This document shows, one piece after another, positions 2,835 through 21,338 of a DNA stretch of 30,566 nucleotides (position 1 is the stretch's first letter; each line of letters opens with the position of its first letter). The notes beneath the pieces are model-generated. The model saw nothing but the letters and a program-made list of their open reading frames with translations, was not told where the DNA came from and did not search any database. Made by a program: the position numbers and the translations under genes. This stretch comes from a virus (taxonomy: Duplodnaviria > Heunggongvirae > Uroviricota > Caudoviricetes): the IMG/VR virus record IMGVR_UViG_2609459826_000004, positions 1-30,566 of that record, one strand, 5' to 3'.

Positions 2835-5732
2835 TTATGCCTGAGTACGCAGCGCTTCAAGGCGGCGCAGGTCGAAGTCGTTCAGTTCGTCGGTGTAGTC
2901 AGCAGTGATTGGCGCTGGCCATTCACCTGTGTCGAATCCGGTTGCGATATTGCGCATCGCTTTGCGGTACTCGAGCATACCCAGCTCCAGTAGTTCAGCG
3001 GATGCCTCGATGATGGCGATCCAGTGGTAGTTCTCGTCTTTGTTGACGAAAATCCAGAAGAACTGATCCAGCGCTGCGGTTTCGCAGTACATAGCCGCGC
3101 TCAGGTGATAATCACGTTCAATAATTTCCCGGTGTAGCCTGGCGCGCAGGCTTTCCTGCTTAACATTCCACATGCTGATGGTTTTCAGGTCTGCACCTAT
3201 ACGCACGCCATCCAGGTCGATCTCAAGGTCAGGGCGCACACGAACTTCCAAGCCCGTCTCCTCGTCAAAACCAAAGTAGCTCACCTCAACGGCTCGGCTA
3301 GGGGGGGTCAGCAGCATGCCGGCGGTCGGGTGTGCCAGAAGCGCTTTTTGAATATTCAGCGCGGTGCTCAGCTGCTGGCGGGTGACCAGCACTTTTCCTT
3401 CCGGGTTATCGCGCCAGGCATCCAGCAGTTCGTCGGCAAATACGGCATCTGGTTTGACTGCCTTCACGGCCTGGATCATGTCTGCTTTGGTACCGGACAC
3501 TTTCAGTGGTGCCGGTTTCTGTGCTTCCTGAGCCACAAGGTCAGGGTTGATGATTGCCAACTGCTCCAGCAGCGCGTCACGGCTGCCGCTGGTTTTAACC
3601 GGCGGCGGCAGGGTGGCGTTGTACTCTTTAATGCATGCCTTCATTGCCGTCGCCGTCTGCTTCTGGTCACCATCAATACGCTGGAAGTCAGCTGGCAGCG
3701 CCATATAGTTCTGTGCCGTTTCTTCCAGGTTAGCGCCAAGCGGAACCTGCGGCGGCAGGGTGGCGTTGTACTCTTCCAGTAACACCTTGATGTCGTCGGC
3801 AGACAGCAGCGCCGGCAGGCTGGCATTGTGCTCATCGATAAAGGCGCGCAGGGTCGCGGCCGTTGTGAATGCGCCTTCAGGGATCACCGGTTCAACGCTG
3901 AATTCTGCGTCCAGTAGTTCAGGCTGCAACGCCAGCGCATGCACCAAGTTGCCCATGTCCAGCACCGCTGAGCGCTCTTTGACGATGGTTTTCTCTACGT
4001 GGCGCGCATTGAAGTACATCAGCGAAACGCGCGCATCTTTCACCTGGGTTGAGCTGATGCCGTTGGCGGCGTGGTAAACCTCGTTTGGCAGCCCTTCATA
4101 GCGGCCTGGCTCGAAATAAGCGGGATAAACAACAGCTGGTTCGTCAGATTGCGCTTCTGGCTCGGTTTGTGCTGCAACTGGTTCGGTTTGGCTTACAGAA
4201 TCGCTATTTTTGGCGACAGAATCCGTATTCTGGTCTACATCGTCCTTCTGGCTGGTATCTGACTCTTCACCAGACTCCAGACTGCTTTCGCCTGGCTGTA
4301 CTTCATCACCAGCTTGTTTTTCATCACTGACAGTTTCTTGAACCTGCACATTGCTGGTGGTCTCCGTAGCCTTTTTCGTGCCATGAGTTGCTGAGTTCTG
4401 CAGCAAAGCCGTAACGTCGAATATTCCGTTGCCGACATTTTTAACCAGTTCTTGTTCGACTTTCTGCGGTTGTGCTGCCGCTTCCTCTGCGCGGCGGCGT
4501 GCTCCTTCTTCACGCACGCGTTGCAGGTTCTCTTCGTGAGTGCAGAAGGATTTGCGCGGAGACTCCTTACCTTCAGGTTGGGGAATTTCCTGTGCTGCGG
4601 GTTCAGCCTCATGCAACGGCAATAACTCGACCGCGGAATTGAACGCGGCTGTCATGGTCTGGTTAACAAATTCCAGGTGAGCGACAGGAGTTAAATGAAT
4701 ATTTTCCGGTGCGATACGTACCAGGTTAAAAATAGCCGTGCGGTTAACACCCAGAACGCCTGGCTGATTGCGCAGGATGTTGCTCCATGATTTCCATGGT
4801 TCTTCTTTTTTGGTCACGATTTCTTTAGCGCGACGAAGAATGCTGCCCGGGATCTCGAAGTGGTTGAAGTCCATAGGCAGAAGGGCACACGCAATCTCTA
4901 AATCGAGAGTGTCCAGTGTGTGGTGTGCGTCAGGTCCACGGTCAGTGACGTAACCGCCGTCGGCATTAGTGCCGGAATCAGTACGCTGCACACTACTGAT
5001 GCGATTACCGGCGGCCCATTCGCGAACGAGGATACCGCGGTCGATGTGATCTGTAGCGAACCACAATTTCAAAAACTGGATTAAGGTTGCGAGTTCAGGG
5101 ATTTTTCCATCGACAGGGAAGACTTTCTTAACGGCATTCACGACTTTATGAATATCGTGCTCAATGGCTTTTTTGAATGCTTCCACATTCTCAGCTGCCA
5201 GCAGCAGGTTCTGGACGTAGCTGTTATCCACATCCAGCTCGAGTCCCTGAATAATTTTCTTTTGCTCAGAATCGATGTGATAAACGTATTCATCAGAGAT
5301 GAACTGAGCCAAGATACGCTGGCGCAAGGATAGGGTGGCGACAGTGATCAACTGCGGCTGTTCTGCCTGCTGGGATTCGTCTGCATGGCCGGTTTCACCA
5401 TCAACGACATTGTCATCAGCCTGGTGGTTTTCTTCCTGCGCCGCGTTATCAGCTTTCAATTTCACATTCCAGGTGCGCTGGTCTTCGGCCAGTTCGTAAC
5501 GATCACACCAGGTGAAATCAACTTCACCTTCTTCTGGCAGGTCATCAACAACCGGGAAGTCAGTGCGAATTGGTTTGGCGTAGTCCTTGCCGCGGCCGGT
5601 TTCGATGCCAGCATCTTCCAGCGCAACGTCCAGCATCAGGTTGGCGCGAGCCTCGGTTTTAGCAGTGAACCAGACCACTGCATCTTGCTTTCCGGATTTC
5701 TGAGTGGCTTTAACCACATTAAAGAATTCCAT
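2835..5732 (-). CDS. recE: Exodeoxyribonuclease VIII (RecE-like) 5'-3' dsDNA exonuclease
   Basis: 965-aa ORF. N-terminal segment IRTDFPVVDDLPEEGEVDFTWCDRYEL closely matches the E. coli Rac RecE N-terminus as I recall it ([26 protein letters not shown]). Acidic low-complexity linker, C-terminal nuclease-sized domain, GAGGA RBS 6 nt before the ATG. Confidence 0.8.
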   Translation of the reverse strand: MEFFNVVKATQKSGKQDAVVWFTAKTEARANLMLDVALEDAGIETGRGKDYAKPIRTDFPVVDDLPEEGEVDFTWCDRYELAEDQRTWNVKLKADNAAQEENHQADDNVVDGETGHADESQQAEQPQLITVATLSLRQRILAQFISDEYVYHIDSEQKKIIQGLELDVDNSYVQNLLLAAENVEAFKKAIEHDIHKVVNAVKKVFPVDGKIPELATLIQFLKLWFATDHIDRGILVREWAAGNRISSVQRTDSGTNADGGYVTDRGPDAHHTLDTLDLEIACALLPMDFNHFEIPGSILRRAKEIVTKKEEPWKSWSNILRNQPGVLGVNRTAIFNLVRIAPENIHLTPVAHLEFVNQTMTAAFNSAVELLPLHEAEPAAQEIPQPEGKESPRKSFCTHEENLQRVREEGARRRAEEAAAQPQKVEQELVKNVGNGIFDVTALLQNSATHGTKKATETTSNVQVQETVSDEKQAGDEVQPGESSLESGEESDTSQKDDVDQNTDSVAKNSDSVSQTEPVAAQTEPEAQSDEPAVVYPAYFEPGRYEGLPNEVYHAANGISSTQVKDARVSLMYFNARHVEKTIVKERSAVLDMGNLVHALALQPELLDAEFSVEPVIPEGAFTTAATLRAFIDEHNASLPALLSADDIKVLLEEYNATLPPQVPLGANLEETAQNYMALPADFQRIDGDQKQTATAMKACIKEYNATLPPPVKTSGSRDALLEQLAIINPDLVAQEAQKPAPLKVSGTKADMIQAVKAVKPDAVFADELLDAWRDNPEGKVLVTRQQLSTALNIQKALLAHPTAGMLLTPPSRAVEVSYFGFDEETGLEVRVRPDLEIDLDGVRIGADLKTISMWNVKQESLRARLHREIIERDYHLSAAMYCETAALDQFFWIFVNKDENYHWIAIIEASAELLELGMLEYRKAMRNIATGFDTGEWPAPITADYTDELNDFDLRRLEALRTQA
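3597..3775. repeat. Intragenic 32-bp direct repeat (2 copies, 1 mismatch) inside recE
   Basis: aacc[g/t]gcggcggcagggtggcgttgtactctt at 3597-3628 and 3744-3775, 147 bp apart (in frame), with a degenerate third copy near 3811-3833. Encodes repeated E(E/K)YNATLPP peptide units. Confidence 0.6.
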
Positions 5733-5872
5733 GTGAGATCCTCATTTTTGGGTGTTAGAATCCCCGGACCATTGATAGCGCCCATTGGGTTAACTTTGGT
5801 TTTAATGTTGTTTCCGGTGTAACTTTGGTCGGTGAGGCCGGACATGGCGGGCCCACTTCGGTGGGCTTTCGC

Positions 5873-6160
5873 TTAACTGACGGCTACGATCGCCTCATTC
5901 ATAAAATCTTGCTTGTATGTACGGTAGGTTCCCCAGCCGGCGTAATCGCTATCGCTGATTTTGAGTACCAGCAAGCTGATCTCCTCAATGGCGCAGTGCG
6001 GGCAATCAAACTTGCCAAGCACATAGCCACCGTCGAGAATGACTGTTGTTTCACCGTTTGTAGTTGAGTGAATAACGCCTGATACTTTCTTCTCGCAGTT
6101 GAATGCAGCCACTTCTTTATTCACTGCTTTCAGGTTCATTTCGATTTTTACGATTTCCAT
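5873..6160 (-). CDS. Hypothetical early-left protein
   Basis: 95-aa ORF upstream of recE on the same strand; GGAG RBS 6 nt before the ATG. Confidence 0.5.
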   Translation of the reverse strand: MEIVKIEMNLKAVNKEVAAFNCEKKVSGVIHSTTNGETTVILDGGYVLGKFDCPHCAIEEISLLVLKISDSDYAGWGTYRTYKQDFMNEAIVAVS

Positions 6161-6245
6161 AAAATCTCCAGTTGTTAAATTAAGGGTGTAAGAAGCCGCG
6201 CCAAATTAATGGCGAATTTTTCATTTCATATTTCAGGACTGCTAT

Positions 6246-6404
6246 TTAACTTTCGTGCGCCATCTGGTCGTATTCAGCGCATTGCTTAGAGCAATATTCT
6301 TTTTCTTTCTGTGCCAGTTGCGAACCGTTGAGATAGAGCAAGGTGCTCTTTACTTCTGCGCCTTCTTCAACAGGCTTGTGGCAATAACCACATTCTTTTT
6401 TCAT
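6246..6404 (-). CDS. Small Cys-rich protein (putative zinc-binding), 52 aa
   Basis: Below the 60-aa cutoff of the ORF track. ATG at 6402-6404 (minus) preceded by AAGGA at 6-nt spacing. Translation MKKECGYCHKPVEEGAEVKSTLLYLNGSQLAQKEKEYCSKQCAEYDQMAHES has CxxC and CxxxC pairs. Confidence 0.35.
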   Translation of the reverse strand: MKKECGYCHKPVEEGAEVKSTLLYLNGSQLAQKEKEYCSKQCAEYDQMAHES

Positions 6405-7900: not shown

Positions 7901-7937
7901 TAAGCGATTAAAAATTTACAGCGAAGGAATTCGGGAC

Positions 7938-7965
7938 GTAAAAAAGCCCGCGCGATGGCGGGCTT
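7938..7965 (-). terminator. Intrinsic terminator downstream of the repressor gene
   Basis: Hairpin AAGCCCGC / GCGGGCTT (7944-7965, loop GCGATG) followed on the minus strand by a U-run (complement of A7941-A7945), just after the cI-like stop at 7984. Confidence 0.5.
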
Positions 7966-7983
7966 GAGGGGTTTTGCGTGAGG

Positions 7984-8661
7984 TTATGGGATGTTTAGTA
8001 TTTTGGCATCAACCACAACGCCGATGATTTTGCAGTTTCCATTAATTTCTAGCATTGGATATGCGGGGTTAAGGGGCTTTAGGAAGCGTCTGCCGGCATC
8101 GATTACAAGCTTCTTAAAGGTCGCTTCGTTATCGCCTTCTAGCTTCGCGACAACCAGCTTTCCGTTGCGCGGCTCGACTTCAGGATCAACAAGTATCGCT
8201 GCTCCCTCGGGTATGCTCAGTCCAGCCGGGGAGGTCATAGAATCCCCTTTAACGTCCAGCCAGAATGAATCTTCTGAGCAGTCAACAGTCGTGTCATACC
8301 AGCGATCTATCGCTCTTCGGTGATAAGGTTCTACAGCTTCCATCCATTGCCCCGCGCTTACCCAGCTGATTACAGGATAACTTCCTTTTGTCTCGTTCAG
8401 TCCTCGAAATGCAACGTTCGAAGGTTCTTCACTGGCGTGTAAAACATCCATCCAGCCAAAAGGCAGATCAAGCGCAGTTTCAATTTTGCGAGCCATCTTA
8501 TCGCCGATATTGCGATGAGGGTTTGGTCCCAGTAGCTGGCTAAGCGCAGCCGGACTTGTCTCGATGAGCTCGGCAAACTGCGCTTTGGTCATTCCAGACT
8601 CGTGCTGACGCTTCTCGTACAGCGCTTCCAGGTTGGCTTTTCTGATTTCTTTATTTTCCAT
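7984..8661 (-). CDS. cI: cI-like phage repressor (N-terminal HTH, C-terminal LexA/S24 peptidase domain)
   Basis: Start placed at the internal ATG 8659-8661 (MENKEIRK...), since the longer track ORF reads through the operator region. N-terminal HTH-like segment (MTKAQFAELIETSPAALSQL), C-terminal S24 signature with GDSM serine and downstream lysine (VVAKLEGD). Divergent from the Cro-like gene across OR. Confidence 0.85.
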   Translation of the reverse strand: MENKEIRKANLEALYEKRQHESGMTKAQFAELIETSPAALSQLLGPNPHRNIGDKMARKIETALDLPFGWMDVLHASEEPSNVAFRGLNETKGSYPVISWVSAGQWMEAVEPYHRRAIDRWYDTTVDCSEDSFWLDVKGDSMTSPAGLSIPEGAAILVDPEVEPRNGKLVVAKLEGDNEATFKKLVIDAGRRFLKPLNPAYPMLEINGNCKIIGVVVDAKILNIP

Positions 8662-9028: not shown

Positions 9029-9598
9029 ATGCATTCACTTACGTATCACGAGAATAACGGATTCAATGCGAATCCGATGATTTCGATAAATCAAAGCGTT
9101 CCGCGCAATAACAGTAAGCTGACCAGGATCCGCGAAGCTGTTCGCGCCTGGCAGAAGGCAACGCCCGGACAGGCTCAGGTTCACATTTCGCAACTGGTAG
9201 CAAAGGAGTGGCTGGCGCGCGGCGGTCGTGGATTGCTGCTGGCCGGTTCTGAGCACAACACCAAGCAGAACTTCTTCCGGATGATTAAAGACCCGGGACC
9301 TAAGAACGATAAAGGCCTGGTGCTACTGATCCCCGTCATTGTTGATGTGATGGCTCGGGATAACGAGCAGGTGGCCCGTCAGTTCGGTCTGGTGAAAGGC
9401 AAGACGAAAGAGGAGTTGATTGCGGAGGCCATGAAAGAGTGCACTGAAGCGCATCAGGCGAAGTTACTTGGTCAGCCGATACAACGCCTTGAGAAAGAGG
9501 TGAGAGAAGCTGCTGAAGCACTGCTGCGCTTCCTGCCAACTGAATCAATCGCTGCGGTGGTGACAAGTCTGGCCGCCATGGCGCCGGGAGTTATGTGA
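9029..9598 (+). CDS. Hypothetical protein in the cII position (possibly CII/YdaT-like regulator)
   Basis: 189-aa ORF immediately after cro. Function inferred from position only. Confidence 0.45.
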   Translation: MHSLTYHENNGFNANPMISINQSVPRNNSKLTRIREAVRAWQKATPGQAQVHISQLVAKEWLARGGRGLLLAGSEHNTKQNFFRMIKDPGPKNDKGLVLLIPVIVDVMARDNEQVARQFGLVKGKTKEELIAEAMKECTEAHQAKLLGQPIQRLEKEVREAAEALLRFLPTESIAAVVTSLAAMAPGVM

Positions 9599-9839: not shown

Positions 9840-11000
9840 ATGGGCGTCGTTAGGTTAGCAGATCGGAACGGAGGCGCGTATTCCTCCAGGAGCTCTCGCG
9901 TGGATAACAGGAAGCAGGGCCACTTTGCCTTGTTCAGAAGCGCTCTCACGGCACCGTGGTCAAAGGATACGGCTAAGTTAGCCCTGTGGGTGCGCCTGCT
10001 TGGTGAAGCTCGCTTTAAGCCGGGCAGCGTTGAATTTGCTGGCCGAGAATGGATGCTTGGAGCGGGGCAGTTAGTCACCACCACCGCCATCATGGCAAGA
10101 AAACTTCGCGATCAGGACGGCAATGAGAAGAGTGCAAAAGCCGTTGAGCGAATGCTGAATTTCTTCTGCCGGGAAGGGATGTTAAGCACCAAAGGAACAC
10201 CATTCGGAACCGTGATTACCATCACAAATTACTGTGAATATCAGGGCATTTCAGGCGTCGAAGGTAATGACGAACCACCCGTCGAGCCTAAACCCAGTGC
10301 TGGCGCGGTCTTGAAGCTTGTGCACGTCGAGGGGGGTGACGAACCACCCGTCGAACAGAACAAGAATGGAGTTAACAAGAATAATAAACCCCCCCTTACC
10401 CCCCAGGGGGAAAAATCGCTCGCTCAGGATGTGATGGATTACTTCAACGAGCTGACAGGAAGCCGCTGCGCTGCCTTAGCGCCTTTCGAAAAAGCGCTTA
10501 CCACCGTGAAGAGCAAAGACCAGTGCTACACCGCTGAAGAGCTGAAACTCGTTATCCGCTGGGCCCATGTGAACTGGGGTCACAGCTTCAAGCCAGAGAA
10601 CCTGTGCCGTATGACCCGCTTTGATGGATACCTGTCAGACGCCCTGATATGGGCAGATGGTCATGGCAGCAACCCGAAAGCCTGTCTGCACGAAGAGATC
10701 ATCAAGCTCTGGAATGAAAAATTCCCTTCGAAGGCCGTTTCGCTGCATGAGTGGAACCGCCGCCGTCCGGCCTATCGAGACCTGGAAGCTGTGTGGAACG
10801 GCAAAACCACCCAGGGCAACTGGCGAGAACTGAAGCACATGGGAATGGCCTTCGAGCTGATTAGCAAGTCTTCCCTGTTCGCCACCAGAGGCGATCAGCC
10901 ATGGCTGACACTCGACTGGATCCTGAATCCGAAGAACTGGGGATCTGTCTACGAGCAGGCCATCAACGAGCACCGTGAGCGCAAGGGAGTCAAAGCATGA
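9840..11000 (+). CDS. Replication initiation / replisome-organizer protein (lambda O-like role)
   Basis: 386-aa ORF with AGGAG RBS 9 nt upstream, followed with a 4-nt overlap by the DnaB-like helicase. Contains in-frame iteron-like repeats plus an AT-rich stretch (origin-within-gene arrangement); C-terminal region resembles the conserved phage replication-protein C-terminus. Confidence 0.7.
   Translation: MGVVRLADRNGGAYSSRSSRVDNRKQGHFALFRSALTAPWSKDTAKLALWVRLLGEARFKPGSVEFAGREWMLGAGQLVTTTAIMARKLRDQDGNEKSAKAVERMLNFFCREGMLSTKGTPFGTVITITNYCEYQGISGVEGNDEPPVEPKPSAGAVLKLVHVEGGDEPPVEQNKNGVNKNNKPPLTPQGEKSLAQDVMDYFNELTGSRCAALAPFEKALTTVKSKDQCYTAEELKLVIRWAHVNWGHSFKPENLCRMTRFDGYLSDALIWADGHGSNPKACLHEEIIKLWNEKFPSKAVSLHEWNRRRPAYRDLEAVWNGKTTQGNWRELKHMGMAFELISKSSLFATRGDQPWLTLDWILNPKNWGSVYEQAINEHRERKGVKA
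10256..10354. repeat. Iteron-like direct repeats (candidate replication origin) inside the initiator gene
   Basis: 30-bp units cgtcgaNNNNNNtgacgaaccacccgtcga at 10256-10285 and 10325-10354, with an 18-bp perfect core and 69-bp period. Followed by the AT-rich run 10355-10390. Confidence 0.5.
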
Positions 11001-13756: not shown

Positions 13757-14515
13757 ATGAGCCCTATTACCAAAGAATTCACCAAAGAGCAGTTACAGCA
13801 AATTATCGAAACTGACCACGTTCAATGCGGTGAGGCTTCTTCGCTGGCGCGTATCGCGCTGGCATCGCTCGAAGCGGAGCCTGTGTGCGTAATCGACCAG
13901 TCCAATCTTGATTATCTCAAATCTGGCTCTGATGCAGACGTATGGCCTGCGTTCAGAGTAGAGATGGGTGATGTTCTTCTGTATCGCTCTGCCACGCCAG
14001 CGCCGGTATCTGTGCCCGCTGCGATGGAAATGGATGATGACTTTGACAGCGCGTTTGAACACGGAAAAGCTGTCGGCTGGAACGCCTATCGCGCCGCCAT
14101 GCTTCAGGCCGAACCTGTAAGTAATAGTGATGAGTTACCGCTGGACTATCTGCAAGGACACAAAGACGGCCTGGAGTGGGCTGCACAATTGGCAGAAGCC
14201 AATCATCCGCAAACAGGTGACTGGTTGTACGATGACCCAATCGATCTTGCCAGGGCGATTCGCAAAGGTCCGGATATGCCTACTGTTCAGGGTGGCAACT
14301 CTCCGGTGATTCCTGATGACGTACGCCGCATGGACTGGCTGGTATCGAAAACCGTTGATGTTCGTGAGCCTATGGTTTACGGAAGCCATAGCCTTTTCTG
14401 GTCGCAGACCATCACGGATGAAGAGGATGATTATCACGCGACTAAATTACGCGAGCAAATCGATGCGGCTATGGCAGCTGAGCAGGCAGCAGCACCGCAG
14501 CAGGAGGCCGAATGA
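13757..14515 (+). CDS. Hypothetical phage protein (acidic)
   Basis: 252-aa ORF, tight spacing with flanking genes. Confidence 0.55.
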   Translation: MSPITKEFTKEQLQQIIETDHVQCGEASSLARIALASLEAEPVCVIDQSNLDYLKSGSDADVWPAFRVEMGDVLLYRSATPAPVSVPAAMEMDDDFDSAFEHGKAVGWNAYRAAMLQAEPVSNSDELPLDYLQGHKDGLEWAAQLAEANHPQTGDWLYDDPIDLARAIRKGPDMPTVQGGNSPVIPDDVRRMDWLVSKTVDVREPMVYGSHSLFWSQTITDEEDDYHATKLREQIDAAMAAEQAAAPQQEAE

Positions 14516-16598: not shown

Positions 16599-17096
16599 AT
16601 GAAACTGGAATTAACCAACGACCAGCATCAATGGGTAGACCAGTGGCTCCAGTTGTGGGGCGCATGGTGCCAGACCGGCAAGATTGATAAAGCGATGATC
16701 AACATGATTGCCAGATTCATGGCTACCGTCGAGCCCCAGCAAGCATCACGGCCGGTATGTAGTGATGATGACGGAATGCTCATTGATGCTGTCATTCGCC
16801 ACTACCTGAAGAATGTGGATGAAAATGCCTGGCGGGTTATCTTCGCCTACTATGTCTGCAACTCCAGCGAGATCCGAATTGCATCATGGCAGCATGCAGT
16901 AAGTAAGCCTCGCCTTATGAAGACGCGTGGCGGCAATCAGTACAAACACCCAAGCATCTCGACAATCCGTAGAGAGGTGAAGCAAATCATCAATGCTTCA
17001 TTGTTCTGTTTATACCAACCGCTTCAAAATGCGTTTAACGATCGCGAAAATGTGAGGAAAATTGCAAATAAATCACACAACGTGCTTGCAATTTAA
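16599..17096 (+). CDS. Q: Late-gene antiterminator Q (Q-type family)
   Basis: 165 aa. Motifs WLQLWGAW...SRPVCSDDDGMLID...FAYYV resemble Q-type antiterminators of lambdoid prophages. Sits immediately upstream of a terminator/tRNA/lysis cluster. Confidence 0.75.
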   Translation: MKLELTNDQHQWVDQWLQLWGAWCQTGKIDKAMINMIARFMATVEPQQASRPVCSDDDGMLIDAVIRHYLKNVDENAWRVIFAYYVCNSSEIRIASWQHAVSKPRLMKTRGGNQYKHPSISTIRREVKQIINASLFCLYQPLQNAFNDRENVRKIANKSHNVLAI

Positions 17097-17161
17097 TGAA
17101 CAAATGAGCAAACTAATTCGTATATGTTGCCATTGTTGTGTGTGACATGAATGAATACCAA

Positions 17162-17190
17162 GCCTCGCCATCGTGCGGGGCTTTTTATTT
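17162..17190 (+). terminator. Intrinsic terminator downstream of Q (tR'-like)
   Basis: Hairpin GCCTCGC / GCGGGGC (7 bp, one G-U pair, loop CATCGT) followed by TTTTTATTT. Confidence 0.55.
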
Positions 17191-17264
17191 GCCTGTAGCT
17201 CAGAGGAAAGAGCAACCGCCTTCTAAGCGGTTGGTCGCTGGTTCGAATCCAGCCAGGCGAGCCA
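17189..17264 (+). tRNA. tRNA-Arg (anticodon UCU)
   Basis: Hand-folded cloverleaf: acceptor TTGCCTG/CAGGCGA, D-arm GCTC/GAGC, anticodon stem ACCGC/GCGGT with loop CTTCTAA (anticodon TCT), 5-nt variable loop, T-arm GCTGG-TTCGAAT-CCAGC, discriminator G and encoded CCA. Closely parallels E. coli argU architecture. Confidence 0.8.
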
Positions 17265-17318
17265 AACCCAGCCAGGGTATTTACGGCCAGAGAGCCGACA
17301 TTGCCTTACCCTCACATT

Positions 17319-17346
17319 GCCAGCCTGTCGCTGGCTTCTTTATTTT
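17319..17346 (+). terminator. Intrinsic terminator downstream of the tRNA
   Basis: Hairpin GCCAGC / GCTGGC (loop CTGTC) followed by TTCTTTATTTT. Confidence 0.5.
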
Positions 17347-17425
17347 CAGGCTCCGGGAACCATCATCGACATGCCTTCTTGTTAAATCGTCCCGAGGGCC
17401 TGAACCAACTACACACGGAATAAAT

Positions 17426-17827
17426 ATGTCTGAGACCTTCACTATCGTAGGCGTTGGTCTTACATCGTCATCAGTCGGTGTAACCTTTGCCACGCTGTTT
17501 CCGGAGGCGACTCCAGCAGTGATGCTCGGTTCACTCGCCGGAACGGCGCTATACGTTCTGACCTCAGATCCCCATCAACTCTGGAAGCAGGCTATCTTTG
17601 CGCTGATATCGTTTATCAGTGGCGTGTTCTTCTCCGTCCCCATGGCGAAAATCATGGCCGGAATCATCAACACGCCGTTAAGCCTGATGAAGCCACCGGC
17701 CAGCATTGAGGTATCGCCCGCTGTCGGTGCAATTGTCACTGCTTCCATTTCCGTGGCAGTCCTGCTGCGTATTCTCCGCAAATCCAAAAGCGGGAAGATG
17801 CCGGGGCTGGGGGAGGAAGATAAATGA
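17426..17827 (+). CDS. Putative holin (multi-TM membrane protein)
   Basis: Start at internal ATG 17426, because the longer track ORF runs through the tRNA. 133 aa with several hydrophobic segments and a charged C-terminal tail (RKSKSGKMPGLGEEDK). First gene of the lysis cassette. Confidence 0.6.
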   Translation: MSETFTIVGVGLTSSSVGVTFATLFPEATPAVMLGSLAGTALYVLTSDPHQLWKQAIFALISFISGVFFSVPMAKIMAGIINTPLSLMKPPASIEVSPAVGAIVTASISVAVLLRILRKSKSGKMPGLGEEDK

Positions 17828-18913: not shown

Positions 18914-19079
18914 GGTAATCGACACCGGCTGCGACTGGGTCAACGTCATTCGCCTCACTGAGCACGACATCGAAGTGATGGATCGCCAGACGAAGAAAGA
19001 TGTGCTGGCACATAACAAATCGGTGCAGGCGAACTGCCAACCGAGTGAATACCGGGCCTTACAAACGCGGCCTGAGTGA
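18834..19079 (+). CDS. Rz1: o-spanin (Rz1-like lipoprotein)
   Basis: 81 aa. Lipoprotein signal with lipobox IVSC; starts within the 3' end of Rz in another frame (overlapped architecture). Confidence 0.7.
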   Translation: MFSRQLAICLMTMLIVSCAQTGPAKVEVIDTGCDWVNVIRLTEHDIEVMDRQTKKDVLAHNKSVQANCQPSEYRALQTRPE

Positions 19080-19110
19080 AACAGAAACAATAAAGCGAGG
19101 TGCTTTCCCC

Positions 19111-19290
19111 ATGAAAAAAGAAGACCGTGGTTTTATCTCGGTTACTAACTCAATCAGCGAAGTAAAAAACCTCTTCCTGGGAAATGAAATCCCGCAAGAA
19201 GGTGAGGTGCTTGAACTGGTGGTTGTCAAAAGCGAAACCACCGATGACTCATGTGCATTGGTGCTTAAGCTGCGTTCAGTTCAAAAATAA
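19111..19290 (+). CDS. Small hypothetical protein (59 aa), first ORF of the cargo island
   Basis: Start at internal ATG 19111 with GAGG upstream; no signal peptide; lies in the AT-richer segment. Confidence 0.35.
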   Translation: MKKEDRGFISVTNSISEVKNLFLGNEIPQEGEVLELVVVKSETTDDSCALVLKLRSVQK

Positions 19291-19402
19291 GACGAACTGA
19301 TTGACAAATTGAGTATTTCACGTGTGAATTGATGTAACTCATCGATTACTCTGGTGTATGAATTCATTATGAATTTCCACTCATCAGTATCGGAGAATAT
19401 CG

Positions 19403-20143
19403 ATGCATCAACACATAGCAAACGCCACGTTTCAGGTCATCGCAGGTGACTCAAGTGGCAGTGGTTTTAGCTTCATCCGTGAAGATTTAGTTGTCACTAA
19501 TTACCATGTTATAGAGTCATGCTTTAATCTAGAAACCAGAAGTCAAACCCATAGCATCATCCTGAAAACGGAAGCTAATGAGCAAATTGCAGCTGGGATT
19601 GTCTACTTTGACCACGGTAATGATTTTGTCATCATGAAACTGCTTTCAGCACTGCCCACAGGTAGAGTTGTTCTTCAGCCTTCCGTTGGTTTTTCACCCA
19701 CCAGAGGCAAAAAAATTATCTTTGCCGGTTATCCACACGGAATACCGCAGTTGCTGACAAATGAAGCAATTATCTCAGCACCTATGGAGTTAGGCAGATT
19801 CGCAATTGATGGTATGGTCAATGGTGGTAATTCTGGCGGGCCAATTATAGATCGAGCCTCTGGCGAACTGGTGGGTGTCGTCACTCGGCGTAGATATCTT
19901 ATGGGCGATCAAGCTGATGCTTTCAGTGAGGAGATTGAAAATTTGCGCCAATATCTTGCTGCAGCAAGCCAACATGGAAGTGTAGCAATAATGGGTGTCA
20001 ATTTCGGCCAGATGGCAGATATGTTCGGTAGATCGCTACAGATAGTTTCAGATATGATGTTGCTTAACGCTAATTCTGGCATCGGAATAGGATTCTCAAT
20101 GCAGCCTATCATTGACGCCCTTAGCACCATCCCAACAGAATAA
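19403..20143 (+). CDS. Trypsin/HtrA-like (S1 family) serine protease, predicted cytoplasmic, no PDZ domain
   Basis: 246 aa. Catalytic triad in canonical order and spacing: His35 (TNYHV), Asp74 (NDFVIMKL), Ser144 (GNSGGP). No N-terminal signal peptide or TM segment; C-terminal extension of about 95 aa of unknown function. GGAGA RBS 6 nt upstream. Lower GC than the flanking phage genes by eye. Confidence 0.8.
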   Translation: MHQHIANATFQVIAGDSSGSGFSFIREDLVVTNYHVIESCFNLETRSQTHSIILKTEANEQIAAGIVYFDHGNDFVIMKLLSALPTGRVVLQPSVGFSPTRGKKIIFAGYPHGIPQLLTNEAIISAPMELGRFAIDGMVNGGNSGGPIIDRASGELVGVVTRRRYLMGDQADAFSEEIENLRQYLAAASQHGSVAIMGVNFGQMADMFGRSLQIVSDMMLLNANSGIGIGFSMQPIIDALSTIPTE

Positions 20144-20171
20144 ACGTTCATCATGTGAGCGGTCACAAGAT

Positions 20172-20195
20172 AAAGCCTCGCATCAACGAGGCTTT
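20172..20195. terminator. Hairpin between convergent genes (candidate bidirectional terminator)
   Basis: Perfect 9-bp stem AAAGCCTCG / CGAGGCTTT with loop CATCAA, between the protease stop and the stop of the convergent minus-strand ORF. Confidence 0.45.
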
Positions 20196-20222
20196 AGGAC
20201 AAATTCAGGGGAATTCATATCC

Positions 20223-20657
20223 TTAATCTTTTATTACTTCAAATTCTATCGTATCCCCCAAGGACTCCGTCATTACAGCGCACTTTATGACTGTAGTGCG
20301 CGAATTGGCTTCATTATCTACGAGTGCCTTTCGGAATATCGCTGAAAACTTGCTGATCACGTCATTTCTTTGATCTCTAAAATTCGATCCTTCAATACGG
20401 ATCAAGCCTTTGATGGCCGTTTCTAAGTCTTCTAGCTTTTGCCAATAAGTGAATGGTCTTGCTGCATTCTCGCTAAAAGTCTCCAGTTCACTCAATTTCT
20501 TAAGCTTGCCGATGTCGACGCGAACAGCATCGGATATTTCTTTCGCTCTATGAGTATTCCCAACTTTGTTTACAGAGTATGTAAGTAAAAAGTATTCATG
20601 CAGCATCATTTGTTCCATTAATGAGATTGATACTAAAAAATTGGGACAAAAAGTCAT
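20223..20657 (-). CDS. Hypothetical protein convergent with the protease gene
   Basis: 144-aa ORF in AT-rich DNA, where long chance ORFs are unlikely. No clear SD; alternative starts at Met14 or Met17. No domain recognised. Confidence 0.5.
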   Translation of the reverse strand: MTFCPNFLVSISLMEQMMLHEYFLLTYSVNKVGNTHRAKEISDAVRVDIGKLKKLSELETFSENAARPFTYWQKLEDLETAIKGLIRIEGSNFRDQRNDVISKFSAIFRKALVDNEANSRTTVIKCAVMTESLGDTIEFEVIKD

Positions 20658-20735
20658 TATTCAATAGTAAGTTAAAAATTTTTCCAGCCATTTAAATCGG
20701 CGGATCGCTAAAGTCTTATCTATAGGAGCAGTATC

Positions 20736-21338
20736 ATGAGCAAACCGGACTGGGAGGCTATTGAATCGGCTTACCGGGCCGGAGTGATGTCCCTTCGCGA
20801 AATAGCATCGCAGCATGGCATCAGCGAAGGTGCTATCCGTAAGCGTGCCAAGCGTGATGAATGGTCACGTGACCTCAACGCGAAGGTGAAAGAGCGCGCT
20901 GACGATCTGGTACGCAAAGCCGAGGTACGCAAGCAGGTACGCAGCGAAACGGTACTTTCTGAGCGCGTACTAATCGAGGCCACTGCCGAGGTAATTGCCA
21001 CAGTACGCATGGAGCACCGCGGCGACATCCGCCGGGCGAGGACTCTTGCGAACGCACTGTTTGATGAGCTCGAGGCTGAGTGCGCAGACGTTGAGGCGCT
21101 GCGTACCTTGGGCCAAATGATGCTGTGTCCAGATGAGAACGGGCGTGACCGGCTGAACGAGCTTTACCATGCCATCATCAGCATGCCCGAGCGCGTGAAG
21201 TCGATGAAAGCGCTGAGCGAGACGTTGAAGAATCTGATTGGCCTCGAGCGGCAGGCCTACAGCATGGACGAAGGCGAAAAAGATAAGGTCGTTGACGCGC
21301 TGTCTGACCTGATGGATTCGCTCTCTCAGGGGGCGTAA
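20736..21338 (+). CDS. terS: Terminase small subunit
   Basis: 200 aa. N-terminal HTH-like segment (MSLREIASQHGISEGAIRKRAKRDEW), acidic C-terminus; immediately precedes and overlaps terL by 1 nt; GGAG RBS. Confidence 0.65.
   Translation: MSKPDWEAIESAYRAGVMSLREIASQHGISEGAIRKRAKRDEWSRDLNAKVKERADDLVRKAEVRKQVRSETVLSERVLIEATAEVIATVRMEHRGDIRRARTLANALFDELEAECADVEALRTLGQMMLCPDENGRDRLNELYHAIISMPERVKSMKALSETLKNLIGLERQAYSMDEGEKDKVVDALSDLMDSLSQGA

Follow-up and report, generated by a model that had tools for sequence, protein, structure and literature searches.

Serine proteases of the HtrA family carry one or two C-terminal PDZ domains and an export signal or membrane anchor for a periplasmic or other extracytoplasmic location, and form trimer-based oligomers that are activated allosterically through loops. 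Protease-triggered immunity is a fast-growing theme in bacteria, with gasdermin proteases, trypsin-MBL pairs, Avs1, CalpL and Lit among its examples. Lit of the e14 prophage, an abortive infection (Abi) protease that cleaves EF-Tu, is a zinc metalloprotease. To our knowledge, the bacterial trypsin-like immune proteases described so far are all coupled to a separate sensor or effector. Accessory genes of lambdoid phages are known as morons, classical cases being bor and lom of lambda and gp15 of HK97, and exclusion and Abi genes are likewise borne by prophages. Trypsin-MBL protease-nuclease effector modules are described from Hachiman, AVAST and Argonaute systems (bioRxiv 10.1101/2025.09.03.673762; Tuck et al. 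2026, cited in PMC13069673). The present analysis concerns a two-gene cassette, encoding a protein of 59 amino acids (aa) and an HtrA-type serine protease of 246 aa, in IMG/VR record IMGVR_UViG_2609459826_000004. All 30,566 nucleotides (nt) of that stretch were analysed and are referred to below as the window.

Results

The window is an integrated lambdoid prophage. Matches to PHROGs identified the genes that flank the segment of interest as holin, endolysin, i-spanin and o-spanin (end at 19079) on one side and terS (start at 20736) and terL on the other, and so bore out the Rz1 stop and terS start placed there by an initial annotation made from the sequence alone. The guanine-plus-cytosine (GC) content of 19080-20735 was 0.416, compared with 0.532 for the whole window (standard deviation 0.034 over 1656-nt windows) and 0.53-0.57 for the flanks. 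It is the lowest-GC 1656-nt window of the 30.6-kb sequence, about 3.4 standard deviations under the mean. The AT-richness first noted by eye was thereby confirmed, and the three open reading frames (ORFs) described for the segment are all present (Table 1), the antisense one having been drawn as 144 aa at 20223-20657. The closely related Klebsiella phages KO-TP1 and 2b LV-2017 have the same terS, terL and portal as the window but lack the two genes; at the spanin-terS junction they carry different small genes, or nothing is annotated there. Occupancy of the Rz1-terS junction is therefore variable among related phages, in keeping with the status of cargo first given to the segment. These data support the segment being foreign AT-rich cargo at a variable hotspot. 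We conclude with high confidence that it holds two unrelated, independent morons in a shared slot at the lysis-packaging hotspot.

The cassette (approximately 18990-20150) comprises the 59-aa gene, a 112-nt spacer and the 246-aa protease gene. The 59-aa gene and a gene annotated 'S1 family peptidase' also occur together in E. coli EC11, on a different lambdoid prophage, between lysis/Rha genes and nohD; DUF1398 and then YlcI come next, with no ORF144. EC11 and 15 further loci from E. coli, Klebsiella and one metagenome made up the genome loci. In 16/16 of these the small gene precedes the protease gene, the spacer is exactly 112 nt each time, and the pair directly follows the lysis cassette, sometimes after a Rha gene. 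Among viral loci in IMG/VR, the small gene was located 292-293 nt upstream of the protease ATG in 24 of 32 cases (spacer 112-113 nt). At least five kinds of packaging module lie downstream (Nu1/GpA, P22 GP3/Terminase_6, Terminase_4+TerL with HNH, Terminase_3 and DUF2280), and the gene 3' of the protease varies among loci (DUF1398, DUF2560, HNH, PhageMetallopep and unknowns). The initial annotation had presented the three ORFs as a trio. The 59-aa gene and the protease gene do travel together, a conserved partnership which that annotation had missed; ORF144 is absent from all other loci with the pair, that of the near-identical L047 excepted.

The pair was found in 29 of 5426 complete E. coli genomes. 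It is intact in the visibly degraded prophages L008, L013 and L018, the first of these being a remnant without Q and lysis genes. No match to the pair was obtained among 50,697 phage records by DNA search or tblastn, an absence that is not statistically telling at a prevalence of approximately 0.5% in E. coli.

At the left edge, identity to other loci climbs from approximately 0.3-0.6 to 0.83-0.95 at about 18990, within the 3' end of the o-spanin gene; at the right edge, homology to other loci stops at approximately 20125-20150, near the protease stop. An alignment of 22 distinct heads contained a conserved GAGG ahead of the small-gene ATG. The last ~90 nt of the o-spanin gene (18990-19079) are kept in frame upstream of the pair in E. 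coli loci too (compared with L001, ~7910-8000), where they sit in a gap of ~340 nt that separates the small gene from a Rha-family gene and are not directly preceded by a spanin gene. Phages with a spanin of this type seem to be the source from which the cassette spread, the spanin remnant marking its left edge.

Two further observations were made on loci with the pair. L047 (IMGVR_UViG_2740892487_000005, 4587-6260) is a near-identical relative of the window, with a head of 99.8% identity and the same ORF144 and terS; frameshifts in both its small gene and its protease gene represent either decay of the pair or sequencing errors. Pair-bearing E. coli prophages also contain an antisense SDH-family Clp-fold serine protease gene between Q and holin (L001, 4245-5240; L006, L007, L009, L010 and L012 at ~1195-2212), a second protease moron of the late region.

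The 246-aa protein matched Pfam Trypsin_2 (E 1.4e-17). NCBIfam returned only sub-threshold matches to HtrA, DegS and MarP (43 bits vs the HtrA cut-off of 416). A protease profile searched against PDB recovered Deg1/HtrA1 (E ~1e-13), and the top PDB matches in Foldseek were HtrA1, DegS-deltaPDZ, MucD and DegQ (E ~1e-11); a BFVD search gave generic trypsin-fold matches only. Profile and structure searches thus agreed on an HtrA-type fold. The protein is regarded as neither a head protease nor a periplasmic HtrA. The triad recognised in the initial annotation (His35, Asp74, Ser144) is intact: across an alignment of 43 homologs D74 and S144 (GNSGGP) do not vary, and H35 is retained in at least 90%. 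Also conserved among these sequences are the N-terminus, MHQ.LA.ATF, and a NANSGIGIGF motif at 222-231. In the alignment to the HtrA protease domain, the N-terminus coincides with the first helix and strand. No transmembrane or signal-like segment was found, the maximum Kyte-Doolittle value over 19 residues being 1.15, which agrees with the soluble protein proposed at the outset. Pfam gave no PDZ match, and the chain ends ~15 residues beyond the last protease-domain strand.

In the AlphaFold 2 (AF2) model of the protease (predicted local distance difference test, pLDDT, 84.6), helices at 168-190 and 201-222 are followed by a final strand at 227-232 and a short helix. The unassigned 'C-terminal extension' of ~95 aa reported initially is instead an internal insertion of ~56 aa within the protease fold. 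It is located in the loop that leads from the strand following the catalytic Ser to the last beta-strand, a loop which we take to be the L2 loop that shapes and lines the S1 pocket in HtrA enzymes. Removal of residues 166-221 in silico let the alignment with plant Deg1/Deg5 and mycobacterial HtrA1 continue through NANSGIGIGFSMQ (vs PSGASSGVGFSIP) to the C-terminus. The protease is, as predicted from alignment and model, a bare cytoplasmic HtrA-type domain carrying a built-in insertion.

The AF2 model of the 59-aa protein (pLDDT 83.6) comprised a short helix (H15-19) and a long beta-hairpin (E34-56). A total of 67 homologs was collected at 60-98% identity. A full profile scan of 1.8 billion representative proteins yielded only 9 clusters at 50% identity, and the protein is therefore regarded as confined to an enterobacterial-prophage niche. 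It had no Pfam, PADLOC, PHROG or NCBIfam match. The ratio of nonsynonymous to synonymous substitution rates (dN/dS) against diverged copies was ~0.12, and variable sites were biased to codon position 3 (7/3/12). A homolog in L045 (P0193-like) of about half identity is still paired with a protease. The possibility that the small gene is conserved non-coding DNA was ruled out by this dN/dS value, the third-position bias, the conserved Shine-Dalgarno sequence and the diverged paired homolog. A 74-aa ORF upstream of the L041 protease was considered as a remote homolog and rejected on the basis of hhalign (probability 0.2%) and Pfam. In L039 (~4709-4888) the small gene has an in-frame stop at codon 4 (ATGAAAAAATAAGG) and the adjoining 246-aa protease is intact, a natural case of the protease without its partner.

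The spacer is conserved in length and largely also in sequence. Its GGAG is the protease Shine-Dalgarno sequence. CATTAT was present in 15/15 distinct spacers, ATGAATTCAT in 10/15 and the inverted repeat AATTGATG-N5-CATCAATT in 7/15, the window having an imperfect copy (CATCGATT). Three copies of TGAATT in 112 nt are above chance (shuffle mean 0.19, P = 0.0005); the single 10-bp palindrome ATGAATTCAT (19358-19367) is not (P = 0.2). Conservation at the DNA level suggests a candidate regulatory site. An RNA element was ruled out (fold z +0.45, 1/20 pairs compensatory, covariation term -0.29), and Rfam gave no significant match to the spacer, the sole one (Leu_leader, E 0.075) being far below the gathering score. 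The TTGACA hexamer (19301-19306), the palindrome and the three TGAATT copies are present as first described. That they amount to regulatory signals of the protease's own was not borne out: TTGACA occurs in only 1/15 distinct spacers, that of the window, a scan for canonical sigma-70 promoters found none for either gene of the pair, and the pair lies in late-operon orientation 31 nt past the o-spanin gene. The stretch from the spanins to the pair contained no detectable terminator, and none belonging to the pair was found.

Sequence divergence is distributed unevenly over the cassette. The 5' head, which extends from the o-spanin remnant through small gene and spacer into ~25 protease codons, keeps 80-97% identity among loci; the protease bodies of the same loci share only 50-75%, synonymous sites being saturated. 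In L004, identity to the window is 100% until ~19743 and 47%-87% in 60-nt windows beyond that point, which places a breakpoint inside the protease gene. Divergences of the small protein and the protease are nearly uncoupled (Spearman 0.27), and identical small proteins pair with proteases that are only 40-55% identical. This uncoupling argues against an allele-matched toxin-antitoxin interface. Variability of the protease is highest at residues 41-70 and in the insertion (entropy 1.27, vs 0.4-0.6 in the catalytic core). All protease regions are under purifying selection (dN/dS 0.09-0.23), and the protease is therefore taken to be a functional protein. Diversifying selection on the insertion was considered and not seen, its dN/dS of 0.23 being that of other variable regions. 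We read the overall pattern as one that reflects recombinational shuffling of old alleles, in which the conserved 5' head can act as a recombination handle for swapping divergent alleles.

The protease also occurs by itself. It lacks the small gene in 7/32 viral loci (L041, L050, L059-L063); in L059-L061 it directly follows the o-spanin gene, starting 64 nt past it. Full-length homologs of 33-45% identity, all lacking the small gene, were found in Limnohabitans, Acidithiobacillus, Deferribacteraceae, Defluviitaleaceae, Lysinibacillus, Pirellulales, Deltaproteobacteria and Anaerolineae, and the small gene was present in none of the non-enterobacterial protease loci examined. Judged by this distribution, in which it stands as a single gene in several phyla, often on mobile islands, the protease is the core unit of the cassette.

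Several stand-alone homologs are neighbours of restriction, TIR, candidate defence or mobility genes. One lies between hsdM and hsdS/hsdR of a type I restriction-modification (R-M) operon that contains a PDC-M14B-like gene (L026), another follows a ThsB-like TIR protein at a distance of 58 nt, with a D12 methylase nearby (L024), and a third is immediately upstream of a PADLOC PDC-S31 gene (E 8e-56; L065). Others are located beside a Gp49/HTH toxin-antitoxin pair (L020), beside integrases or a large serine recombinase (L021, L025, L069), or ahead of an HNH_5 gene on two contigs (L067/L068). On the latter, from Salinisphaera and a second contig (L067, 8001-9753; L068, 94-1846), the gene for a 299-aa HNH_5 protein is situated 118 nt after the stand-alone protease. 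By analogy, these two may form a protease-nuclease pair reminiscent of trypsin-MBL logic. In the HNH_5-linked homolog P0120, Arg replaces the catalytic His.

Marine Gammaproteobacteria also hold protease homologs. Some of these (P0080, P0106 and P0118; L005, 6001-6825; L065, 8001-8819) have the zinc-binding SEC-C motif (PF02810) at the C-terminus. The motif serves in SecA to bind SecB and the ribosome, and may thus hint at the localisation or targets of the protease.

ORF144 and the adjoining hairpin make up the other moron. Only two homolog clusters of ORF144 were found among 5.8 billion proteins (128 and 126 aa, starting MMLHEY and MLDYF), and both begin at the equivalent of Met17/18. Its start is probably Met17 (20609), which would give 128 aa. 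The match to PHROGs was phrog_36011 (unknown function; E 6.6e-7). A diverged homolog in L032 is antisense and occupies the lysis-terminase hotspot of another phage that does not have the pair. The hairpin folds far better than shuffled sequences (z -4.7 on the + strand and -5.2 on the - strand; 0/200 shuffles as good), and is thus as real as the initial annotation had supposed. It lies 27 nt past the ORF144 stop, with a partial U-tract on the - strand, and is most simply explained as the terminator of the antisense ORF144 unit, outside the pair. Its earlier inclusion in the protease system is not upheld, because the pair and other loci cease to be homologous near the protease stop.

Table 1. 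Positions in the window of the cassette, its parts and the antisense unit beside it.
Feature	Position	Strand	Remarks
Left edge of mobile module	18990-19110	+	o-spanin 3' end and small-gene Shine-Dalgarno sequence
59-aa partner protein	19111-19290	+	acidic, soluble; confined to enterobacterial prophages
Conserved spacer	19291-19402	+	three TGAATT, ATGAATTCAT palindrome, inverted repeat, CATTAT, GGAG
246-aa protease	19403-20143	+	PDZ-less HtrA-type (S1C-like) serine protease, predicted cytoplasmic
Catalytic codon H35	19505-19507	+	
Catalytic codon D74	19622-19624	+	
Catalytic codon S144	19832-19834	+	
Insertion of ~56 aa (residues 166-221)	19898-20065	+	predicted two-helix hairpin (AF2 and in-silico deletion alignment)
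Hairpin	20172-20195	.	perfect 9-bp stem, 6-nt loop, between convergent stops
ORF144	20223-20609	-	near-orphan antisense moron gene; probably 128 aa from Met17

Gene order in the remainder of the window is integrase, RecT and RecE-like genes, S24-type repressor, DnaB, NinG, Q, tRNA-Arg, lysis genes, cargo, and packaging and head genes. The 965-aa RecE-like protein (2835-5732, -) adjoins RecT and has an N-terminal Exonuc_VIII region and a C-terminal PDDEXK DUF3799, the arrangement of a Rac-type recombination module. No Pfam family was matched at E <=1e-5 by the early-region ORFs at 9029-9598 (189 aa), 9840-11000 (386 aa) and 13757-14515 (252 aa), the second of which is directly before DnaB, the expected place of a replication initiator. 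The tRNA-Arg gene (anticodon TCT; 17189-17264) is located between the Q antiterminator gene and holin, and a second, milder AT-rich dip surrounds it (16800-17400; GC 0.44-0.47). The Q-holin interval is another cargo position in lambdoid phages. A 229-aa ORF (17138-17827) that overlaps the tRNA is probably spurious.

Discussion

We tentatively read the small gene and the protease as a conflict or immunity/defence module working by regulated proteolysis, the best supported of the readings considered, and hold it to be somewhat short of probable. It is proposed because the pair has an accessory distribution, foreign GC content and a place at a hotspot, is retained in degraded prophages, and encodes a constrained, intact enzyme whose stand-alone homologs repeatedly have restriction, TIR and candidate defence genes as neighbours. 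Taken by itself, a role of the protease in phage conflict is plausible from these comparisons. In the mechanism envisaged, the protease would be kept inactive, with the L2 helical hairpin as a candidate built-in switch or sensor, until a cue from an infecting or competing phage turned it on. The active protease would then cleave host or phage proteins and stop phage production by abortive infection or exclusion. The small protein would serve as an accessory confined to one lineage, for instance as regulator, adaptor or substrate, that acts via conserved protease surfaces and not as an allele-matched antitoxin.

A broader version is conceivable, though doubtful, in which the protease family as a whole is an anti-phage immune protein encoded by one gene and spread widely over phyla, a bare cytoplasmic HtrA domain in which the L2 hairpin would itself detect a phage component and thereby free the active site. 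Enterobacterial prophages would on that account have gained the 59-aa adaptor and the regulatory head, and recombination at the head would swap alleles of differing specificity between unrelated phages.

Several points weigh against a conflict or defence module. The defence function is read from sequence comparison, and the association with defence genes consists of approximately 10 non-phage loci inspected by hand, with no enrichment statistic; the contexts of L005 and L069 contain no known defence gene. Neither gene of the pair fits any PADLOC system model as a whole. The 59-aa protein is without a recognisable fold (no Foldseek PDB match at E <1), and dN/dS gave no positive-selection signal in the variable regions of the protease. 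The literature search found no publication on the protease family, the hits of the prophage-defence screen of Brenes & Laub 2025 lying outside its coverage. Expression of the pair in a lysogen is unproven, because the pair is in late-operon orientation and no sigma-70 promoter or upstream terminator was detected. Measured against all of this, the overall reading given in the initial annotation survives in part. Cargo, protease and a conflict or defence role are retained, the last through the contexts of distant homologs, as is its statement that no named defence system is recognisable, there being no PADLOC or NCBIfam system match; the trio and the hairpin as a component are given up, and the own regulatory signals are no more than candidates.

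The late-operon orientation is also what would be expected if the protease were a late-expressed accessory enzyme serving the phage's lytic cycle, co-transcribed with the lysis and packaging genes and degrading host proteins, for instance those of host defence (counter-defence), or factors with an effect on lysis timing or virion yield. This is the main alternative. The pair is on the same strand as the late operon, closely follows the o-spanin gene (31 nt, or 64 nt for the protease in L059-L061) with no promoter or terminator detected in between, and keeps its place right after the lysis cassette over phage types. We nevertheless consider such a role rather unlikely, given that full-length homologs occur outside phages, where one is part of an R-M operon and others have TIR or PDC genes next to them, and that the remnant L008 keeps the pair intact without Q and lysis genes. 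The pair is moreover absent from close relatives and from the deposited phage genomes, and is therefore regarded as dispensable for lytic growth. The order of a small upstream gene and a larger enzyme gene, their strict co-occurrence in the 16/16 genome loci, and an inverted repeat and TGAATT repeats in the spacer that could be operators would suit a toxin-antitoxin or addiction pair, with the protease as toxin and the 59-aa protein as an antitoxin that autoregulates via the repeats and stabilises the prophage. This is improbable in view of the proteases that stand without a small gene (in L041, L050, L059-L063 and all non-enterobacterial loci) or beside a nonsense copy (L039), the uncoupled divergences, a 112-nt spacer that is atypical of type II toxin-antitoxin operons, and a small protein with no DNA-binding or antitoxin family match.

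Two other explanations are contradicted by the comparisons. A three-gene system, with ORF144 and the hairpin as functional partners of the protease, would account for their adjacency in the window and in near-identical L047; it is scarcely credible when the gene after the protease differs in every other locus, when ORF144 has two clusters only, the diverged one at the hotspot without the pair, and when the pair is no longer homologous to other loci past the protease stop. The generic trypsin/HtrA fold would by itself also suit a core structural-maturation protease, or a periplasmic HtrA paralog with a cryptic signal peptide. Either is highly improbable: the gene lies outside the head module, upstream of terS, it is absent from relatives that share terS, terL and portal, and pair-bearing E. 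coli prophages have their own S49 head protease, while for the periplasmic alternative the N-terminus is not hydrophobic, the chain starts at the protease domain and PDZ is lacking.

The pair is thus a well-defined, widespread and experimentally tractable candidate for protease-based cargo of prophages and defence islands, and the lysis-packaging junction of lambdoid prophages is a cargo slot common to several packaging types. If the conflict or defence reading is true, a 246-aa protease would be sensor, switch and effector in one chain, the most minimal version of protease-based immunity and an easy experimental system. Should it act late in infection on the phage's behalf, the protease would represent a new kind of phage-encoded enzyme for host shutoff or counter-defence. 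In both cases a family annotated only as 'S1 family peptidase' would gain a function.

Among known proteins, the best structure and sequence matches are HtrA, DegP and DegS (MEROPS S1C), with which the protease shares the chymotrypsin fold, the His-Asp-Ser order and GNSGGP; its final GIGIGF strand aligns to the HtrA G(V/I)GF(A/S)IP strand. Unlike them, it has no PDZ domain, signal peptide or anchor, is predicted to be cytoplasmic, has the helical-hairpin insertion in the L2 region, and is found on prophages and mobile islands and not as a housekeeping quality-control gene. The defence proteins closest in sequence are fusions. The protease domain of RT-Protease class XI was matched at E 3e-14 (model positions 339-503/506), but is there fused, in a protein of ~500 aa, to an N-terminal reverse transcriptase (RT) of which the window protease has no part. 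The match to Avs1b of AVAST type 1 was weak and confined to the protease domain (E 6e-6, 21.9 bits, model positions 4-107/1924); Avs1b is a fusion of ~1900 aa with a STAND NTPase and a C-terminal sensor (NCBIfam cut-off 1500), compared with 246 aa and no other domain here.

Trypsin-MBL modules likewise have a Trypsin_2-type protease and probably follow a similar logic, being inactive until infection. They differ in having a neighbouring metallo-beta-lactamase (MBL)-fold nuclease that co-evolves with the protease and is cleaved by it, and a linked sensor system: an MBL domain was found in none of the 16 genome loci, where the partner is the 59-aa protein or nothing, and HamAB, AVAST/STAND or Ago sensor genes were absent from the window and related loci. 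The protease followed by an HNH_5 gene at a distant locus is comparable by analogy only. The cargo as a whole resembles the classical lambdoid morons in being extra genes between conserved modules, with deviant composition and a patchy distribution among relatives; ORF144, antisense and with a terminator-like hairpin of its own, conforms to that pattern, whereas the pair is encoded in the sense direction, and neither a promoter nor a terminator was detected for it. Lit is a zinc metalloprotease of unrelated fold, yet as a prophage-encoded cytoplasmic protease that is an Abi effector it offers a functional analogy for the mechanism proposed here.

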